A stretch of 64,000 bases of DNA. Origin: an uncultured delta proteobacterium (lineage in GTDB: Bacteria > Myxococcota_A > Polyangia > Palsa-1104). Below are positions 30,415 to 39,770 of this stretch, in pieces (the stretch's first letter is position 1; each line of letters begins with the position of its first letter). The position numbers and the translations under genes are program-made. The stretch covers positions 416,001-480,000 of the forward strand of contig CAWAWS010000003.1 in NCBI GenBank assembly GCA_963785725.1, read 5' to 3'. The notes beneath the pieces were generated by a model. It saw only the letters and a program-made list of their open reading frames with translations, was not told the DNA's origin and searched no databases.

Positions 30415-32067
30415 CTAGCTAATCGGGATCGTGAAGTTGACCCACGCCGGCGTATGATTTCCGTCGCTGCCTGGCTGGTTCCACAAGTACAGCGCCGGAT
30501 AAGTCGTCAAGTTGCCCTGTCCGTCTACGACGATGGGCGTCACGTACAGTTGCGCTGGATTGCCCGTGGTCGCCACGTCGTTCCGTTTCGACGAGAACGT
30601 CAGCCAGTAGTACGTCGAGCCGCCAACGGTCGTCGAATTGGGCGCCCACTTCGGCCAGCTATTGGTGAGACCGGGGCTCGTCATGTTGGCGCAGCTTGGC
30701 GGGTCGTTCGCGGCCAAGCGCGTCGCCGTTCCGCCGCTCGCCGGAACCAAGAACACCTGATCGAGCGGATTCGCGACTCCGCCGGGAAGATTCGTCTCGG
30801 TCGTCGAGTCGATGCGCGTAAACGCGATCCACTTATCGTCATCCGAGTAGGTTGGGTAGAATTGATTCTTCGTCGGATCGCTGGCGCCGTTGAGTGCGGT
30901 CGATGCACCGCCCATGCGATTGTTGTACTGAACGACATGGATCTGTCCGTCCGCCATTTGGTATCCGGTCGTGTTGATGGTCCCGGTCGGATACGCGACG
31001 CTGGTGCCGGAATGACTGAATGCCGGAGCGCCGGGGAGCCGAGCGCCATCGCCAGTGTGGGGGAGCGGACTAGACGTGCCGAGGTCTAAATCGGTCCAAT
31101 AGATGTCGTAAGTCTGTCCGCCATCGAGCGACAGCATCGACAGCATCGTGCGGTCGCCCGTGGCCCAAAGCCCGCTCGAGAACGTCGGAAACTGTTGGTA
31201 GCCACGCGCAAGCTGCGATGTCGAGCTTGCCCACGCCGTCGGCGGAGGATTCACATTGCCGTCGCTGGATACGAAACGAATCTGGGCGTTGTCGCCGTTG
31301 CTGCTATCGCTCGTCCACGAGAACGCCACGTACGAGCCATCCGGCGTCGACGTGTGGCAGCCCAAGCACGCCGGCGTCGCCGGTTTTGCCGCCGTAGGCA
31401 TCACATCGTGAACGCCTTCGTCGCCAAGCGAAAAGCCGCGCAGCGCCGTGAGCGGCGGGCTCACGTTTTTGTCCGCCGTCCAATAGACGATCGAGCCGGG
31501 CGCGCTCGCAGGAGCGATCGTGAACGTCGTCGTTGCCGGCATCGACGGTCCTTCGGTCAACGCGCTACCGCTGTACGTGGCAGCGCGAATGCTGACGGTA
31601 ACCGTCTGATTTTGCGCGTGCGCCTGCAGCGCCGTCCACGACTGACTATCCAGCTTCCACGGATTCTCTGTCGTGTAGACAACGAGGTCGTTCGTCTCCG
31701 CAGCAGTATGCAGCCGAATCTCGAAGAGGTTCTGTCCCGTCGTCGCTGGCGTGAAATTGAATCTTGGACGCAGCCAATTGTTTGGAAGCAGCGCCCCGGT
31801 CTGCGGATCTAGAATGCAGGGACCGGCCGTTCCGTCGGTCGTACCGCCAAAGAGCACCGGCGCGTTCGGTGGTGTATTTCCCGTCGGATCGAGGACTGGC
31901 GTGGACGGGAAGTCGTTGCCCGGCGTAGTCGATCCCGAGCCGCCGCTCGACCCGCCGGCCGAGCCACCGCCGGCGCCGCCCCCGCCGCCGCCCGATCTCG
32001 TTCCCGAGCTGGAGTGGCACCCAACGACCGAGAGCAATAGAACCAGCAGCAAATTCTTCGACGGCAT
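30415..32067 (-). CDS. TolB-like/PD40 beta-propeller lipoprotein
   Basis: Lipobox VVGC, GSIVYW, CLGCH...PDG, YPTYSDDDKWIAF, NSWPKWAP, WLTFSSKR, NHTPAW motifs. Confidence 0.85.
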   Translation of the reverse strand: MPSKNLLLVLLLSVVGCHSSSGTRSGGGGGGAGGGSAGGSSGGSGSTTPGNDFPSTPVLDPTGNTPPNAPVLFGGTTDGTAGPCILDPQTGALLPNNWLRPRFNFTPATTGQNLFEIRLHTAAETNDLVVYTTENPWKLDSQSWTALQAHAQNQTVTVSIRAATYSGSALTEGPSMPATTTFTIAPASAPGSIVYWTADKNVSPPLTALRGFSLGDEGVHDVMPTAAKPATPACLGCHTSTPDGSYVAFSWTSDSSNGDNAQIRFVSSDGNVNPPPTAWASSTSQLARGYQQFPTFSSGLWATGDRTMLSMLSLDGGQTYDIYWTDLDLGTSSPLPHTGDGARLPGAPAFSHSGTSVAYPTGTINTTGYQMADGQIHVVQYNNRMGGASTALNGASDPTKNQFYPTYSDDDKWIAFTRIDSTTETNLPGGVANPLDQVFLVPASGGTATRLAANDPPSCANMTSPGLTNSWPKWAPNSTTVGGSTYYWLTFSSKRNDVATTGNPAQLYVTPIVVDGQGNLTTYPALYLWNQPGSDGNHTPAWVNFTIPIS

Positions 32068-32536: not shown

Positions 32537-33331
32537 CTACTGAGGCGCGGCGGGCGGCGCGAGCTGGTAGCGCTGGGACCAGGCCTGCGCGCCGTCGAGC
32601 CCGAGGCGCTCCAGGCGCGGCAGCACCGCGCGCTCGATCGTGCGATAGAAGACCTCGACGCGCAGCTCGGGCGCGAGCATGCCGAGCTCGGACAGGGCCG
32701 GCGCGAATGGCTCTCCGGCCTCCAACCGCCGCAGCGCGGGCGCGGCGACCGACTGCTCCAGGTCGGCCAGCCCGCGGCGCAGCTCGCCGCCGAGCCACTC
32801 GCGCTCGCCGGCGAACGCCGGGAGCACGCGCGCCAGCGCCGACCAGCCGAAGCGAGCGTGGCCTACCTCGTCACGCAGGATGTTGCCGAGCACGGTGCGC
32901 GTCAGCGGCTCGCGCGCGCCGCGCCGTCCGGTCGCGAACAGCGCCGCCGATACCGTCTCGCCGATGGCGACTTCGATCAACAGCAGCGCGAGGAGGCGGC
33001 GGCGCGGCTCCGGCAGCCCGGCGAGGCGGCGCGCGACCGGCGCGCGATCGTGGGTGACGACCGCAGCGCCCAGCGCCACGCCTGCGTCGCGGCACAGCCG
33101 GGCATGGCGCAGCTCCTCGCGCGCGATCCGCGCGGCGTCGGCCGCGAGCGGCGCGAAGGCTGCGCCCAGCCGCCGCGCGGCGTCGCGCAGCGCCCGAAAG
33201 ACGAGCGCCGAGCGCAGCTCCTGCGCGCACTTCATCGGCCACGCGCGCGCGGCGAGCTGCGCCAGGCGCGGCTCGTAGCCGCCCAGCGCCGGCCGTGGCA
33301 ACGCGATCGACTCCGGTCGCGGCGCGCGCAT
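32537..33331 (-). CDS. Ferritin-like (diiron carboxylate) domain protein
   Basis: Ligand pattern QELRS, REELRHA.LC, GETVS, RDEVGHARFGW. ATG lies 1 nt after the TAG of the upstream peptide gene. Confidence 0.85.
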   Translation of the reverse strand: MRAPRPESIALPRPALGGYEPRLAQLAARAWPMKCAQELRSALVFRALRDAARRLGAAFAPLAADAARIAREELRHARLCRDAGVALGAAVVTHDRAPVARRLAGLPEPRRRLLALLLIEVAIGETVSAALFATGRRGAREPLTRTVLGNILRDEVGHARFGWSALARVLPAFAGEREWLGGELRRGLADLEQSVAAPALRRLEAGEPFAPALSELGMLAPELRVEVFYRTIERAVLPRLERLGLDGAQAWSQRYQLAPPAAPQ

Positions 33332-33332
33332 G

Positions 33333-33626
33333 CTAGTCTTGCGTCGCGCCGTCCGTGACGGCACCGTCGCCGGCATCGGACGCGGCGTCGGCCGCGTCGG
33401 GCGGGCCCTGATCGAGCGGCACGCAGTACCCGGGCGCGTCGTCGCTGGGAGGCCCGCTGTAGGTCCAGCGTTCGCCGTTGGCCTCGCACTGGCTGACCTT
33501 GCACCGCTCGCCCTCGGGCGCGAGACAGCAGGGGTCGGGGTTGGCGTTGCAGCAGTTCTGGCAGTTGGCGAGCGCGACCGTGCCGCCGGCCAGGACGAGC
33601 TGCTGCAGGCGCTGCTTCCATCCCAT
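33333..33626 (-). CDS. Small Cys-rich peptide or lipoprotein (CQNCCNANPDPCC core)
   Basis: MGWKQRLQQLVLAGGTVALANC leader, Cys-dense core, DAG-rich tail, coupled to the ferritin-like gene. Confidence 0.75.
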   Translation of the reverse strand: MGWKQRLQQLVLAGGTVALANCQNCCNANPDPCCLAPEGERCKVSQCEANGERWTYSGPPSDDAPGYCVPLDQGPPDAADAASDAGDGAVTDGATQD

Positions 33627-33910
33627 CCCGCCAACGTATCCGACCTGCGGCCTCGGCGCAGTGTCGCTGCTCACAGGCGGCCGATCACCGGGACCTGTTG
33701 GCAGCAGCCACGCGCGCGATACAGATCCGGCATCCGCCATCAAGAAAGGCATCGAGCCCACAAGTGAACGAATACGCCGTCTAGGTTTACTTTTTTCGTG
33801 CCCACGCGGTCTCGCCTATCGGGAAGTCATTGCGGACCCGCGCTTCGTGCGATCCGACAGGATGACGGCGACCCATTCCCAAAGAAGAGGCTAAGTGAAG
33901 GAGTCCGAGA

Positions 33911-34918
33911 ATGTGTCACTTGAGCTCATGCAAGGACAAGGACGAGAAATGCACCAAGAAACATTCGGCATGTTTCGCCTGCTACACTGTTTGCATCGGG
34001 CCGGCAAAGGAACCGGGTCCTCACGAGTTCAGCCCGGAGGTCAAAGAATTCTTCGAGAAGAATAGACCGGGTTGGGTCCAGCCGGCGGGGGGATGGGCTC
34101 CATCGGAATCGGGTTGGGTCCAAGCGGGCTGGGTCCGATCGGATGGTCCCACGTCAATGGCCAGCCAATGGGTTGACGATGACACTATCAAGCAACCTCT
34201 TTCAAACTTGGAGAAGAGGTTGGTGTTGATGCTCAAAAATGGGGCTCTCCTTGCGGCCGACCTACCGAAAGACACCCCGGCCATGAAGATCGCCCTCGAG
34301 CGCACAGGAAAAGCTCCGGTGGTAGGGTTGGCTCCGACGCCCGTACCCAACATGCCCGGCGTCCGAGTTTGGGTAAGCAACGCGACTGAGATTCTCCCGG
34401 CTACCGGCATGGCGTCCGAGCCGCACCCGGACGATCCCAATCGGGTGAATGACTATCACTGGAGCTCGACGACCGTGTACATCCGGTTTCGAACCGAAGG
34501 GAAACTGTCGAATGCCGGTGCGGGATACTGGCTGGCGCCGTCCCTGAGTCATCTCGTCACGTCAGTTTACGTGGGGCTTGCGTTCTCCGATCTGACACAG
34601 GATGACTCCGTCGACATCGGTCTCATCAAGGGAGAACGCACGTGTATTACGATGCCTTGTTGCTACAGCGCCAATGTCGCTCCGAACGTCAAGACTTGGT
34701 CTTGCAAGAAAGGGAACATCGACTACTGGTCCGTTCCCAAGCTGTCCTTTCGTCTCGGCGACGTCGGCGTCGGGCACCCGGAGTGGGTAAAAGCCACGAA
34801 GAACGGCGTCGGAATGAACTCGCTGTCCCAGGGTGCGGGCGTGGGCCACAATCGACTCTTGGTCATCATGACGGAGCTCTTGACCACACAAATCCTGCGA
34901 CTGATTAACCAGCTCTAG
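33911..34918 (+). CDS. Hypothetical protein with Cys/His-rich N-terminus
   Basis: RBS GAAGGAG before ATG 33911. 335-aa globular-looking ORF, visibly less GC-rich than the flanks. Confidence 0.7.
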   Translation: MCHLSSCKDKDEKCTKKHSACFACYTVCIGPAKEPGPHEFSPEVKEFFEKNRPGWVQPAGGWAPSESGWVQAGWVRSDGPTSMASQWVDDDTIKQPLSNLEKRLVLMLKNGALLAADLPKDTPAMKIALERTGKAPVVGLAPTPVPNMPGVRVWVSNATEILPATGMASEPHPDDPNRVNDYHWSSTTVYIRFRTEGKLSNAGAGYWLAPSLSHLVTSVYVGLAFSDLTQDDSVDIGLIKGERTCITMPCCYSANVAPNVKTWSCKKGNIDYWSVPKLSFRLGDVGVGHPEWVKATKNGVGMNSLSQGAGVGHNRLLVIMTELLTTQILRLINQL

Positions 34919-35319: not shown

Positions 35320-38300
35320 TTAGAACGACAGACGAACACCGAATCGCAGCGACAGCGGCGCCTGGTACGACGTCGCGCGACCATAGTTCGGGTTGAGCGT
35401 CACGTTGCCGCCGGTGGTCGTCTTCAGGTTCACGAGGTCGGCAACCGTACCGCCGACGATCGGACGAACCGCCGACGTCGTGTACTGCTCGTCGACCGTC
35501 GCGATCGCCTGCTGGTCGAACAAGTTGAAGATGTCGCCGTACGCCTCGAACGTGAAGATCTTCGAAATCTGGCGGCGATACTGCATGTGCAGGTCGAACT
35601 GCGTGGTGAAGGGCGTACGACCGCCCGAGCCACGCGGCAGGATGTAGCTCTCGTCCGGGCCGTAGGAGGCGTGGCTGCCGAGGACTTCGATCGGGCTCCC
35701 CGACAAGCCGTTGAACGCGAGACCGAGGACGACCGTGTTGTCGCCGAACGGCAAGAAGTACGAGCCGAGCAGCTTGATGTTGTGCGGATGGTCGTTCGGC
35801 AGCGGGCCGTTACGATTGATGAGCAGCTCGCGCAAGTCGTACTGCGTCGAGATGTTCGGGTCGAGCTGGCCGTTCGACGCCTGGAAGAGGCCGGGGTAAT
35901 TGCCGACCGTGCGCGAGTACGTGTACGACGCCAGCACCGTGAAGTTGTGTGACAGGCGCTTCTGGGCCGTGAGGACCATGGCGTCGTAGTTACGCGTCGG
36001 CTTCGGGAAGCCCGAGCCGACGTTCTTGTACTCGGCGAGCTGCTGCTGGAGGTTGGCGCGCGGGCAGCCGGGCCCACCGAGGCTGCTGCAGGTCGACGGA
36101 TCGGGCGCCGTGGCGCTGATCTTGTTCTCGAGCTTCTTGACTTCGCCCTCGTCGACGCCGCTGCCGGGGTTGGCAACGAGGTAGGTGTTGCCGCCGTCCG
36201 GCGAGACGTCCTCGATGATGCGGCCGAGGTCGCGGTGGATGTACGTCGCGCCGAGGACCATGTCGAGACCCACGTCGTACTGCACGCCGGCGACGACTTC
36301 TTCCGAGAACTGGCCCTTCAAGTCCGGCGCCACGATGCCGTTGGTGCCGCCCGAGATGCGATTGTTGCCGACGGTCGGCTGCGCGCAGCTCGCCGGGTTC
36401 AGCCGGGGATTCGCCGGGTAACCCGCGCACTGAACCGAATACTGAGTGATGACGCCTTCGCCGCCGAACTCGCGGTCATTGATGTCGAGCGGGATCGACT
36501 CGTAGAAGCGGCCGTAGCTGGCGAAGATCTTCGAGCGGCCCTTACGCGTCCAGTCGTAGATGGCGCCGACGCGCGGCGCCCAGTTATCCCAGATGCCGAT
36601 GAACGTCTTGCCCGTCGAGTCCTGCGCCTGCTGACCTTCCCAGCGAACGCCGGCGTTGACGGTCAAGCCGGGGACGAAGCCGACGTTATACGAGTCGCGC
36701 AGATAGGCGCCGTAGTTGAGCGTCTTCGTCGTCGGCGCGAGGCCGCCCGGCAACAGCATACCGGCGCCGTCGCCGCCGTTGGCCGCGATCTTGCGCGCGT
36801 ACTCGCGGAAGATCTCAGGGTTCGAATCGTCGGGCGTGATGGTGTAGAAGGCGCCGCCCGTGTAGTCGCGAGCGTCCTTGTAGATGTTGTCTTCGAAGTC
36901 GGCGCCGAGCTTCACCGCGTGCGTGCCGCCGAGGCGCGCAAAGTACGTCGCCGAGGCCGCCGCCGAGATGCGCTGATTGGTCGTGTGCGCGATGAAGCCG
37001 AGGCCGCCGTCCTGATAATTGAGGACCGGGCAGGGATTGAAGCTCGCCGTCGCGTTGCAAGGCGTAACGGTCGGCTCGAAGAACGACAACGACTCCGCCT
37101 GCTGATACAGAACGCCCGACTGCTGGCCGGCGGCCGGCGTCGTCGTGCGCGCGTCTTCGTAGTGGTAACCGACGAGCACATCGACCTGCAGGCGGCGATC
37201 GAGCAGCTTCGACACGAAGTGCAGCTGCGCGTCGTGCGTATTGTCGAACACTTTTTCGAGGAGCGCGCCGACCGAGCCGTTGAGCGTGCCGAGCGCGCCT
37301 TCGTTCGTCGACGGGCTGCCGATGTACTGGATGCTCAAGCTGTTGTTGGCGTTGAGCTGGAAGTTGAACTTCGCGATCCAGTTGTAGAGGCGCTTGTCGG
37401 TCTCGTAGCTGTGGCTGTATTGGCTGCCGAGGTTCTGCTCGACGTAGCCGGGCGACGTGCACAGACGCTTATCGAGGTACGCCGGGCAGGAGATGTTCGG
37501 GTCGAGATCGCCGGCATACTGGCCGGCGAAGCCCGCCGGAACGTCATTGTCCGTGCGGACCCGCAGCGCGCGCGTCGTCTCGAAGCTGGTGAACGTCGGC
37601 GCGAAGCCCACGTAGAACCAGACCTTGTCCTTGACGAGAGGACCGCCCAAGTCGAAGCCGAAGTCGAGGCCGTACTTCTCCTTCGTGCGGCTGACGATCG
37701 CCTCTCCCGAGCGCCCGACAGTGTTCGCCTGCAGCTGCAGCGGCGTCGCGTAGAGCCACAGACCGCCGTGGAACTGGTTCGAGCCCGACTTGGTGATGAC
37801 GTTGACGACGCCGCCCGTGGCGCGGCCGTACTCGGCGTTGTAACCGCCGGTGATGAGCTCGGTCTCGCCGACGAACTCGAGGGTCAGCTGCGTACCGACG
37901 AGGCCGAAGGCCGGGTTGGTCGAGTTGACGCCGTCGATGAGGTAGTTGTTCTCGGGACCGGTCGCGCCCGAGAAGCTGATGCTGGCGCCTTTGCCGATGC
38001 CGGCTTCGCCGGTACCCTGAGCGGCGCCCGGCGCCAACGCCATGATCGCGTCGTACGTACGACCCTGAACCGGCGTGTTGCGCAAGAGCTCGCTCGTAAC
38101 CGTGGTCTGCTGCTGCGTGTTACCAACGTCGACGATCGGCGCCGTCTCGACGACGACGTAGGTCTTCATCGCCGCGTTCTGCGTCGGGAACGTGATGTTG
38201 ACCGGCAGCGTCTTATCGGACTGCAGGAAGATGCCGGGGCGCTCGACGTGGATGTCCGAGAAATAGAAGCGAACGAGGTACTCGCCGGGCGGCAGCTGCG

Positions 38301-38535
38301 TGATGATGTAGTGGCCGCCCTCGTCGGTGAACTCGGTCTGCTCACCTTGCAAGGCCGGCGAGGTCACGGTGACGGTGACGCCGGCGAGCTTCTTGCCGGT
38401 CGCTTGATCGGTGACGACGCCCTCGATGTTGCCGGTCACGTCTGCGTGCGCCGTCGCGGGGACGAGCAAGAACCCCAAAAGCGCAGGCAACGCCCACGCG
38501 AGCAGGCGGGTCTTCTTGATGGACGAGGCGTTCAT
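35320..38535 (-). CDS. Oar-type TonB-dependent receptor with carboxypeptidase-regulatory-like N-domain
   Basis: GVTVTVTSPALQG, ENNYLIDGVN, TGGYNAEYGRATGGVVNVITKSGSN.FHG, SYGRFYESIPL, C-terminal LRFGVRLSF. ATGA overlap with the upstream gene. Confidence 0.93.
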   Translation of the reverse strand: MNASSIKKTRLLAWALPALLGFLLVPATAHADVTGNIEGVVTDQATGKKLAGVTVTVTSPALQGEQTEFTDEGGHYIITQLPPGEYLVRFYFSDIHVERPGIFLQSDKTLPVNITFPTQNAAMKTYVVVETAPIVDVGNTQQQTTVTSELLRNTPVQGRTYDAIMALAPGAAQGTGEAGIGKGASISFSGATGPENNYLIDGVNSTNPAFGLVGTQLTLEFVGETELITGGYNAEYGRATGGVVNVITKSGSNQFHGGLWLYATPLQLQANTVGRSGEAIVSRTKEKYGLDFGFDLGGPLVKDKVWFYVGFAPTFTSFETTRALRVRTDNDVPAGFAGQYAGDLDPNISCPAYLDKRLCTSPGYVEQNLGSQYSHSYETDKRLYNWIAKFNFQLNANNSLSIQYIGSPSTNEGALGTLNGSVGALLEKVFDNTHDAQLHFVSKLLDRRLQVDVLVGYHYEDARTTTPAAGQQSGVLYQQAESLSFFEPTVTPCNATASFNPCPVLNYQDGGLGFIAHTTNQRISAAASATYFARLGGTHAVKLGADFEDNIYKDARDYTGGAFYTITPDDSNPEIFREYARKIAANGGDGAGMLLPGGLAPTTKTLNYGAYLRDSYNVGFVPGLTVNAGVRWEGQQAQDSTGKTFIGIWDNWAPRVGAIYDWTRKGRSKIFASYGRFYESIPLDINDREFGGEGVITQYSVQCAGYPANPRLNPASCAQPTVGNNRISGGTNGIVAPDLKGQFSEEVVAGVQYDVGLDMVLGATYIHRDLGRIIEDVSPDGGNTYLVANPGSGVDEGEVKKLENKISATAPDPSTCSSLGGPGCPRANLQQQLAEYKNVGSGFPKPTRNYDAMVLTAQKRLSHNFTVLASYTYSRTVGNYPGLFQASNGQLDPNISTQYDLRELLINRNGPLPNDHPHNIKLLGSYFLPFGDNTVVLGLAFNGLSGSPIEVLGSHASYGPDESYILPRGSGGRTPFTTQFDLHMQYRRQISKIFTFEAYGDIFNLFDQQAIATVDEQYTTSAVRPIVGGTVADLVNLKTTTGGNVTLNPNYGRATSYQAPLSLRFGVRLSF

Positions 38536-39770
38536 TTGCACTGCTCCGGGGTGACGTGGTTCGCGACCGCAATCGGGTCCATCGTCGGGTCGGTCGTGTC
38601 AGGCGAGGTAACGGTGAAGATGATCGGGTCCGACGGCGGAGCCGAGACGCCGCCGCCGAGGCCCTTGGCGGTCGAGATCACGAGCGAGTAGCTCCCAGCC
38701 GGCCAATCGGCAGGAACGCGCGCCGCGCCGGTGCCGCTCGTGTAAACGAGGTCGAGGACGGTCGCGTTCAGTGCGGCCGAGCAGTCCGCGGCCACCGGCG
38801 ACGCGCCGCGATCGGCGTACGCTTCGAGGCTGGCGACGTTGAAGCCGGCCGGGCCCTTCGACGCCGTCGGGTCGAAGACGACCGTCGTCTCGTCGACGTT
38901 CTCCCAGTATGCGTACTGCACGACGTCGTTCGGCGCGATCGTCGTCGGCGACGCAGCGGCCGAGGTGAAGGTGACGCAGCTGCCGCCCGGGCCCGTGCAC
39001 GCTCCGACTGCGACGTTGAAGCCTTCGTTCGCCGTCAGATCTTCGGTGGTGAACTTGAAGTCGGTCGGATCGGCGAGCGGCACGCCGGCCGTGTCCGTCG
39101 CCGCCAGCCCCTGCTCGCTCTTCAACAGCGCCGGGTGGATGCGAATCGTATAGGTCGTGCTCGGGTTGAGGAGGAGCCCACCGGTCACGATCGCCGGACC
39201 GAACGGAACCCAAATGACGTCCGACGTAAACGTCGTCGCGCCACTGTTGTCCCAGAACGCCGTGATCGGGAAGTCGGTGCCATCCGGCTTGAGGAGCTCG
39301 AGAATCCCCGAGTGCAAAGCGTTGGTCTGGTTCGGCAGCTGCGCGCCATTGGCGTCGACATTCGTCGTCTCGATACTCGGATCGAGCTGCTTGTTGAAGA
39401 CGACGCGAATCGCGGTGTTGCCGCCGCTAAGGGGTACGCCGGCGCTCGTGACCTTGAGCGGATCGACGCAGAAGCCGTCAGAATGGCAGGTCAGATCGGG
39501 GATGGTCTGCGCGATCAAGAACTCGGTGACGCAGGGATTGTTGACCGCGCACGCGACGGGCGGCGTGTTGTCGAGCAGGTCGACGATGGCGGCCCGCTGT
39601 GGCCCATATCCCTGGAAGTAGTCGAGATCCTGGATGGTCAGACGCGTGAGCTGCGGTGCGCCCGCTGGCGCTTTGGATTGGCCGTACGACAGGTCGGAGC
39701 AGCCCGACCCTGCCGTCAGCGACGCGGTCATTAACGTTAATAGTGAGATAGTTCCGAACTGCATGCGCAT
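38532..39770 (-). CDS. Lipoprotein with Ig-like (Big) domain, partner of the TBDR
   Basis: RBS AAGGAG, lipobox GSGC, IRVVFNKQLDP..., YTIRI...L.S..G, FKFTT motifs. Confidence 0.8.
   Translation of the reverse strand: MRMQFGTISLLTLMTASLTAGSGCSDLSYGQSKAPAGAPQLTRLTIQDLDYFQGYGPQRAAIVDLLDNTPPVACAVNNPCVTEFLIAQTIPDLTCHSDGFCVDPLKVTSAGVPLSGGNTAIRVVFNKQLDPSIETTNVDANGAQLPNQTNALHSGILELLKPDGTDFPITAFWDNSGATTFTSDVIWVPFGPAIVTGGLLLNPSTTYTIRIHPALLKSEQGLAATDTAGVPLADPTDFKFTTEDLTANEGFNVAVGACTGPGGSCVTFTSAAASPTTIAPNDVVQYAYWENVDETTVVFDPTASKGPAGFNVASLEAYADRGASPVAADCSAALNATVLDLVYTSGTGAARVPADWPAGSYSLVISTAKGLGGGVSAPPSDPIIFTVTSPDTTDPTMDPIAVANHVTPEQCK

Follow-up and report, generated by a model that had tools for sequence, protein, structure and literature searches.

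A closely spaced gene pair

The window analysed here, a stretch of 64,000 nucleotides from an uncultured delta proteobacterium, carries on its reverse strand a 97-aa ORF whose TAG is separated by one base (33332) from the ATG of a 264-aa ORF. The initial annotation had read the first as a precursor with a leader and a Cys-dense core, ending 1 nt before the second, and the second as a signal-less ferritin-like protein with a full E / ExxH / E / DExxH ligand set; both readings held. We refer to the two products as the partner and the enzyme, and their features, in window coordinates, are as follows.

33333..33626 (-): partner gene, 97-aa lipoprotein-like precursor; 338 homologues, GC3 0.92
33564..33626 (-): partner residues 1-21, signal peptide doubling as conserved leader (W3, R6, L12, A13-G14-G15) with a predicted helix 3-12; from conservation and the lowest-error contacts in the complex model
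33561..33563 (-): C22, the lipobox cysteine position, with an atypical Asn at -1 in the window copy; invariant in the alignment
33525..33554 (-): core motif C25-C34 (CCNANPDPCC); conserved, with residues 26-34 in the modelled interface
33546-33548 (-): Asn27, the probable target region; Asn in 75/77 enzyme-linked cores and 0/16 orphan-type proteins
33423..33524 (-): rest of the small Cys-framed domain (helix 39-49, hairpin 52-70; C42, C47, C68); repeated 2-3 times in some homologues and present in enzyme-less copies
33336..33422 (-): acidic Asp/Ala/Gly-rich tail, variable and of low model confidence; from the alignment and the partner model
32537..33331 (-): enzyme gene, 264-aa signal-less ferritin-like diiron protein with 4-carboxylate/2-His ligands (E38, E73, H76, E125, E155, H158)
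32567..32758 (-): enzyme residues 192-255, C-terminal helical subdomain with a modelled leader-binding groove (E192, L203, P221, Y229, R254); predicted from model contacts and conservation

The 97-aa ORF has a GC3 of 0.92 in its own frame and, in a set of 6975 candidates, 338 homologues at E<=0.001, and is thus a real gene and not a chance frame. In a six-frame translation of its own genome (15.9 million residues), the strict leader pattern and the strict core pattern each matched once, both within this ORF. The enzyme gene, with a GC of 0.76-0.80, is single-copy in the 8.9-Mb genome, where the HMM found one further, weak match (E 0.004). In a 93%-identical relative the match to the window ends at position 33686: the flanks differ and the gene pair is kept. 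A 365-codon open frame that runs from a TTG at 33634, spans the small gene and continues into that of the enzyme was considered as a fused reading and rejected as not conserved, being open for at least 100 codons in 13/67 loci.

No promoter- or terminator-like sites were found at the locus, and the one RNA run examined for the cassette yielded short, dissimilar pieces only. Divergent from the cassette lies a 335-codon ORF without a Pfam match (33911-34918, +), in a stretch of lower GC (0.56-0.59). On the cassette strand, some 470 nt downstream, a gene for a 550-aa lipoprotein-like protein has a weak PD40 (beta-propeller) match (30415-32067, -). Further away (35320-39770, -) lie a gene for a 1073-aa outer-membrane barrel of the TonB-dependent type (Pfam OMP_b-brl_4, Plug and carboxypeptidase-regulatory-like) and, its stop overlapped by the barrel gene, a lipoprotein-like gene of 412 aa that has a weak Ig-like match; the barrel does not recur beside the cassette in other loci.

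The partner combines a conserved leader with a Cys-framed core

The partner's N-terminus is conserved as WxxR..LAGG, a leader pattern matched by 112 among the 120 homologues listed; A13, G14 and G15 are invariant and W3 and R6 conserved to at least 96% (105 rows). Within these 112 leader-bearing homologues a Cys follows 18-20 residues after the Trp in 109, most often at a distance of 19 (70/112), and the residue before it is Gly, Ala or Ser in 109. C22, previously counted with the core, is by its invariance and its spacing from the Trp the lipobox cysteine position. The family pattern fits the lipoprotein-like character proposed for the precursor; the window copy is atypical, and its own lipidation is uncertain, because its residue -1 is Asn and C22 is followed by seven Cys. 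Within the 112, the Cys count after the lipobox is even in 110, mostly six per domain, as expected for disulfides.

The Cys-framed domain that follows starts with C-[CG]-N-A-N-P-D-P-C, and two strict cores occur in 19 among the 120 homologues listed. The partner model is of low confidence (pLDDT 61), and a fold search with it, which is no guide to the novelty of the fold, returned nothing above Z 2.4. Pfam gave no match to the partner, and NCBIfam none to partner or enzyme.

An intact diiron site in an oxygenase-like fold

The ligand set of the enzyme reads E38 / E73-x-x-H76 / E125 / D154-E155-x-x-H158. E38, E73, H76, E125, E155 and H158 are invariant in 112 aligned close homologues, and in the wider family alignment these six ligands are present in 182-185 of 185 rows, among which the second-sphere residues are clade-specific. 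The N-terminus is not signal-like: the maximum 11-residue hydropathy within the first 40 aa is 0.58, and a value of 1.8 is reached there by 3/118 homologues.

A search of 8000 candidates recovered 150 homologues of the enzyme. Among the 120 matches listed, identities were 45-58%, except for the protein itself and one at 87%, and relatives with named records are nearly all from Myxococcota. A family member occurs in 141/301 sampled genomes of the phylum; the ESM Atlas returned unnamed Myxococcota clusters only. Pfam gave the enzyme itself only sub-threshold matches, to DUF455 and Rubrerythrin, and many of its homologues carry a precomputed PF11583 match.

The predicted structure is all-helical and ferritin-like (pLDDT 95.9). 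Its best fold match is the aldehyde-deformylating oxygenase (ADO) 5ux2 (Z 19.2, rmsd 2.9, 207 aligned residues; Foldseek E 4e-4 against ADO), followed by 4mud (Z 18.4), 3pvr (17.2) and 6y2n (17.0); Paa-type, R2 and MMO chains rank after ADO. Storage ferritins align to residues ~15-180 only, and the enzyme has ~85 further conserved helical residues. By sequence, its best natural match among solved structures is AurF (profile E about 0.002).

Partner and enzyme genes are coupled across loci

The two genes are translationally adjacent and co-conserved. Starting from the enzyme, we scored the 67 of 76 loci that have at least 400 nt upstream, some of them near-duplicates. A homologous small lipoprotein carrying the partner domain precedes the ferritin-like gene in 57/67; domain and leader are both found in 52/67, neither in 6/67, and the domain is absent upstream in 10/67. 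The position of Asn27 is occupied by Asn in 75/77 enzyme-linked cores. Starting from the partner, a profile search matched 20/401 genomes of the class, our own included, and 0/14 of its family, a patchy spread. With the genome of the window, a pair of duplicate loci, two false matches of low score and two contig-end loci set aside, 15 informative loci were left, of which nine have the clade enzyme adjacent (eight directly downstream, one on the opposite strand) and all nine have the Asn. Hence the motif proved to be conserved and tied to this ferritin-like clade from either direction (57/67 and 9/15), the co-occurrence that the initial annotation had proposed as a check.

No third gene recurs in more than 3/85 loci, many of which are short contigs, and no protease or transporter gene recurs near the cassette in the same set. 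The idea of a short released peptide finds no support here.

Some individual loci depart from the common layout. In L162 and L163 the gene before the ferritin-like gene encodes a secreted thioredoxin-like protein with a WCDPC motif and not a precursor, and in L143 and L145, which a loose pattern assigned to the clade, the upstream protein is different and long. L105 has a second, shorter core-bearing frame ahead of the enzyme, and in L205 the partner is fused to a long Cys-rich extension. L137 combines a degenerate core with an enzyme that sits on a long branch and aligns to the profile only beyond its first 53 positions (from position 54), and is possibly decaying.

Enzyme-less copies lose the leader and the Asn and keep the cysteines

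Six partner-first loci without the enzyme provide a natural control. Their partners keep the six Cys and NPDPC; the leader and Asn27-Ala28 are gone, and the signals are ordinary and divergent. The clade-level enzyme was not found in the genomes of these copies, which are 74-91% complete: the best enzyme match there is at E 5.7e-33, whereas linked genomes from the same genus give values of about 1e-113. Among five of these orphans, identity is 0.28 in the signal region and 0.81 in the domain. For 147 leader-bearing pairs at a domain identity of 0.65-0.9, signal-region identity is 0.85, in a set biased by having been found with a leader-including profile. In orphan-type database proteins, leader and Asn are absent in 16/16 and all six Cys present in 16/16. 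The orphan set is one syntenic orthologue group and thus represents one evolutionary event.

A search with the domain only found 208 clusters, and 149 of the best 150 could be scored. The Asn is present in 138/149. The 11 exceptions comprise seven proteins of the orphan type, a truncated one and three (P0302, P0327 and P0330) whose N-terminus is a leader or resembles one. On inspection, no ordinary-signal protein from this search had the Asn. In L267, P0248 and P0251, the enzyme-less copies bear an LAGG/LGG-like remnant in their signals, which hints at leader-bearing ancestors.

Since the orphans lose leader and Asn and keep the Cys frame, leader and Asn track the enzyme and the cysteine frame does not. 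The earlier emphasis on the cysteines therefore looks mistaken: enzyme-less copies with neither leader nor Asn27 still have the Cys frame and NPDPC, and the number of Cys after the lipobox is even in 110/112 homologues.

A modelled complex in which the leader occupies a groove

The complex was modelled from enzyme residues 1-258, partner residues 1-72 and two irons. It scored 0.86, against 0.63 for the best control, an unrelated one; the margin of 0.23 is only just above the 0.20 required. The mark for this score is reached by 116/157 solved and 2/215 mismatched pairs, a calibration that is only approximate for these alignments and with iron riding along. Runs agree in at least 47% of contacts, with a partner pLDDT of at least 56. 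The peptide-enzyme prediction called for in the initial annotation thus passes its controls, and the model supports binding between the two proteins.

The lowest-error contacts link three stretches of the enzyme (192-204, 221-229 and 252-255) with partner W3, R6, L7, L10 and A13-G15, and several residues of this groove are invariant in the enzyme's own clade. The modelled interface also includes partner residues 26-34 and, beside the iron ligands, enzyme residues 20-37, 124-135 and 155. In the model, then, the leader docks on the C-terminal helices and the core lies next to the diiron site.

Partner type differs between enzyme clades

Across the wider family, every enzyme clade comes with a partner type of its own. 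Partner types fall along the enzyme tree, with 25 changes against 95.4 when shuffled (185 rows), a figure inflated by kinship; the tree is from FastTree only and its long branches are unsure. In a sister clade, 57/69 loci have a partner with an ALRAAA-type leader and a WGP-type motif at its end, and 12/69 have no recognised motif. The WGPP core of this largest sister clade is without the Asn, which implies that the chemistry may differ by clade; it usually has a Cys three residues before WGPP. A reverse test with a CxxWGPP DNA pattern gave mostly chance frames: 27 of 30 loci were viewed, three partners looked real, and the enzyme stood beside 3/3, a result that was kept out of the counts.

In 7/69 sister-clade loci (L025, L033, L034, L038, L042, L065 and L066), a single frame joins leader, lipobox and WGPP core to the ferritin-like domain; on the tree these in-frame fusions are interspersed with split forms (6 changes over 7 rows). 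Such fusions could export the diiron domain. Other fused lipoprotein-ferritin types are found in L248, L249, L251, L256 and L261, and in the window enzyme's own clade no fusion was seen (0/65 loci).

Among the remaining clades, some partners are Cys-free and repeat an Asn motif, and others have repeats of the CNG type or a non-lipoprotein signal. The Cys-free partners of L164, L167, L170, L180 and L278 carry repeated His/Val/Ile-x-Asn-Ala/Pro-Pro motifs in Pro-rich linkers; in L243 and L254 the partners are lipoprotein-like, with several short repeats of the YDGG...NPDA type in tandem, and their only Cys lie in the region of leader and lipobox. One subclade (L009, L037, L049, L063, L064 and L075) has a non-lipoprotein signal of the Ala-x-Ala type, mostly with a one-Cys WGP-type core, and lipidation is thus not general to the family.

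Discussion

Taken together, our findings describe a cassette that is real and conserved, that is apparently undescribed and that possibly represents a new class of RiPP. Its conserved leader and core, read from alignments, and the enzyme-leader recognition suggested by the model appear to follow RiPP logic, and a RiPP-like unit for lipoprotein maturation is the best explanation for the two genes. We found neither a ferritin-like RiPP maturase nor an account of this gene pair in the open-access literature, the scope of our search.

The closest functional parallel is provided by the DAG-RiPPs, RiPP-lipoprotein hybrids such as DybA/DybH and NedA/NedBC, in which a signal-less iron enzyme modifies the precursor before lipidation (PMC13056109, in part). 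Here too, a small precursor with a lipoprotein-like signal stands beside a non-heme iron enzyme that has no secretion signal in this clade (the sister clade includes fused forms), the core is conserved and sometimes repeated, and there are variants with non-lipoprotein signals, as in the Ala-x-Ala subclade above (PMC13056109, in part). This precedent, albeit from another enzyme family, makes cytoplasmic modification before lipidation plausible for the present system. The analogy to multinuclear iron enzymes (MNIOs) drawn in the initial annotation is one of function and not of fold: our enzyme is modelled as an all-helical ferritin-like bundle and not as the MNIO TIM barrel, DUF692 has no Pfam or NCBIfam match here, and no substrate-recognition protein recurs among the 85 loci, many of them short contigs. 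The word 'ferritin' is absent from the main text of PMC13056109. Moreover, lipidated RiPPs are expected there, in the part of the source concerned, to be leader-independent or to use a follower, whereas here the signal itself is conserved and is the modelled recognition element, so that the system appears leader-dependent.

Among diiron enzymes, the arylamine N-oxygenases AurF and CmlI (PF11583) share the ferritin-like four-helix diiron core and are nearest in sequence among solved structures. They are 3-His/4-carboxylate enzymes (PMC13108848, in part), whereas the third-His position is Ile151 here and Ile, Leu, Val or Met in all 185 rows, never His; nor do arylamine pathway genes recur near the cassette. 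An AurF-like N-oxygenation, here of the Asn amide, was ranked low with this third His missing. The fold is also that of ADO, PaaA/PaaC, the RNR R2 protein and the MMO hydroxylase, with identities of 9-21%; in contrast to these systems, no reductase or accessory subunit genes recur and the conserved neighbour is a precursor-like lipoprotein. For ADO in particular, structural alignments give 16-20% identity, there is no Pfam match for that family, and no acyl-ACP reductase recurs as a neighbour. Burpitides and borosins have both split and fused precursor-enzyme layouts, as does the present family; the analogy is one of layout, the folds, metals and kingdoms being unrelated.

The reading that we favour, and consider to be somewhat on the probable side, is that the enzyme is a diiron maturase which depends on the leader and oxidises the core before the lipoprotein is exported, probably at Asn27 or right beside it. 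The cytoplasmic enzyme would bind the partner's signal peptide, acting as leader, in the groove at 192-255, which in the model puts core C25-C34 at an opening beside the ligands E38/E125/E155. An intact 4C/2H diiron site and a fold like that of ADO, PaaA, R2 and MMO suggest that the enzyme would then activate O2 and oxidise the core, in this clade most likely at Asn27 or the Asn27-Ala28 unit. Hydroxylation (+16 Da) would be our first guess, with desaturation or oxidative backbone cleavage next. While the leader is bound, the signal may be hidden and export kept waiting for the oxidation to finish; the released precursor would pass, by established lipoprotein biogenesis, through Sec, Lgt and signal peptidase II. 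With its Cys paired as disulfides, the product would be a membrane-tethered, modified mini-domain.

The same leader-dependent enzyme might instead modify the Cys of the CC..PCC motif, forming a heterocycle, thioether or cross-link. MNIOs of DAG-RiPPs do modify Cys motifs (PMC13056109, in part), C33 and C34 are invariant and within the modelled interface, sister-clade cores usually keep the Cys before WGPP, and a Cys-to-Asn cross-link would likewise explain the dependence on Asn. Yet all six Cys are retained in enzyme-less copies (16/16), their number after the lipobox is even in 110/112 homologues, and partners in other clades have no Cys beyond the lipobox; we regard cysteine chemistry as quite unlikely. 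Could the ferritin-like protein be a signal-binding chaperone or metal donor, loading metal or timing export with no covalent change? TorD-type maturation proteins hold signal peptides, iron-handling proteins are found among ferritin-like folds, and in the model it is the leader that makes all of the strongest contacts. Cys, Asp and Asn abound in the partner, His-x-Asn repeats occur in the partners of one other clade, and the fused forms of the sister clade keep this account alive. Against it, there is no twin-arginine consensus (RR follows the Trp in 20/120 partners, and 0/118 enzymes have such a consensus), which makes export of a folded holo-protein unlikely; Tat hitch-hiking was judged unlikely on the same counts. 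The fold is moreover nearest to oxygenases with an extra substrate subdomain (ADO Z 19.2), the second-sphere residues are clade-specific, and the orphans manage without the enzyme. A chaperone or donor role is thus unlikely, though not negligible.

An exported two-part metalloenzyme would have the lipoprotein as its anchor or accessory subunit and a diiron domain that acts outside the cytoplasm, on a small molecule to be oxidised or on peroxide, the split forms being broken-up fusions. The seven in-frame WGPP-clade fusions, together with the five other fused types, lend themselves to this, as do the small-molecule substrates of the nearest solved folds. But split enzymes have no export signal, the modelled interface uses a signal peptide that signal peptidase II would remove, the fusions are scattered among split forms and number 0/65 in the window enzyme's own clade, and no conserved pathway gene lies nearby, so that we consider such an arrangement distinctly improbable. 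That the genes have no functional link and form a mobile pair held together by history would fit their patchy spread (20/401 and 0/14 genomes) and flanks that differ even in the 93%-identical relative. It is hardly credible in view of the tight coupling across unrelated neighbourhoods, the tracking of different enzyme clades by different partner types and the loss of the leader where the enzyme is absent.

It is tempting to extend the maturase reading to the whole family, as a large and undescribed class of Myxococcota ribosomal lipopeptides and lipoproteins in which a ferritin-like diiron oxygenase would read the signal peptide as a leader and hold it until a clade-specific core has been oxidised, centred on Asn here and on Trp-Gly-Pro-Pro or His-x-Asn repeats elsewhere. 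Fused members would act on their own N-terminus, possibly cutting themselves off from it. We consider this broader proposal evenly poised.

To this picture the present locus adds the NANPDPC clade, an orphan control that points to the Asn rather than the Cys, and a modelled leader groove. If the maturase reading is true, the ferritin-like diiron superfamily would join the enzymes that mature ribosomal peptides, and a lipoprotein signal could serve as a leader, a route deemed less likely in the relevant part of PMC13056109. It would also give a function to a family of hypothetical proteins present in nearly half of the sampled genomes of the phylum (141/301). Confirmation would reveal an undescribed way of maturing small membrane-anchored proteins, in which the export tag is gripped and the protein altered before it is exported.
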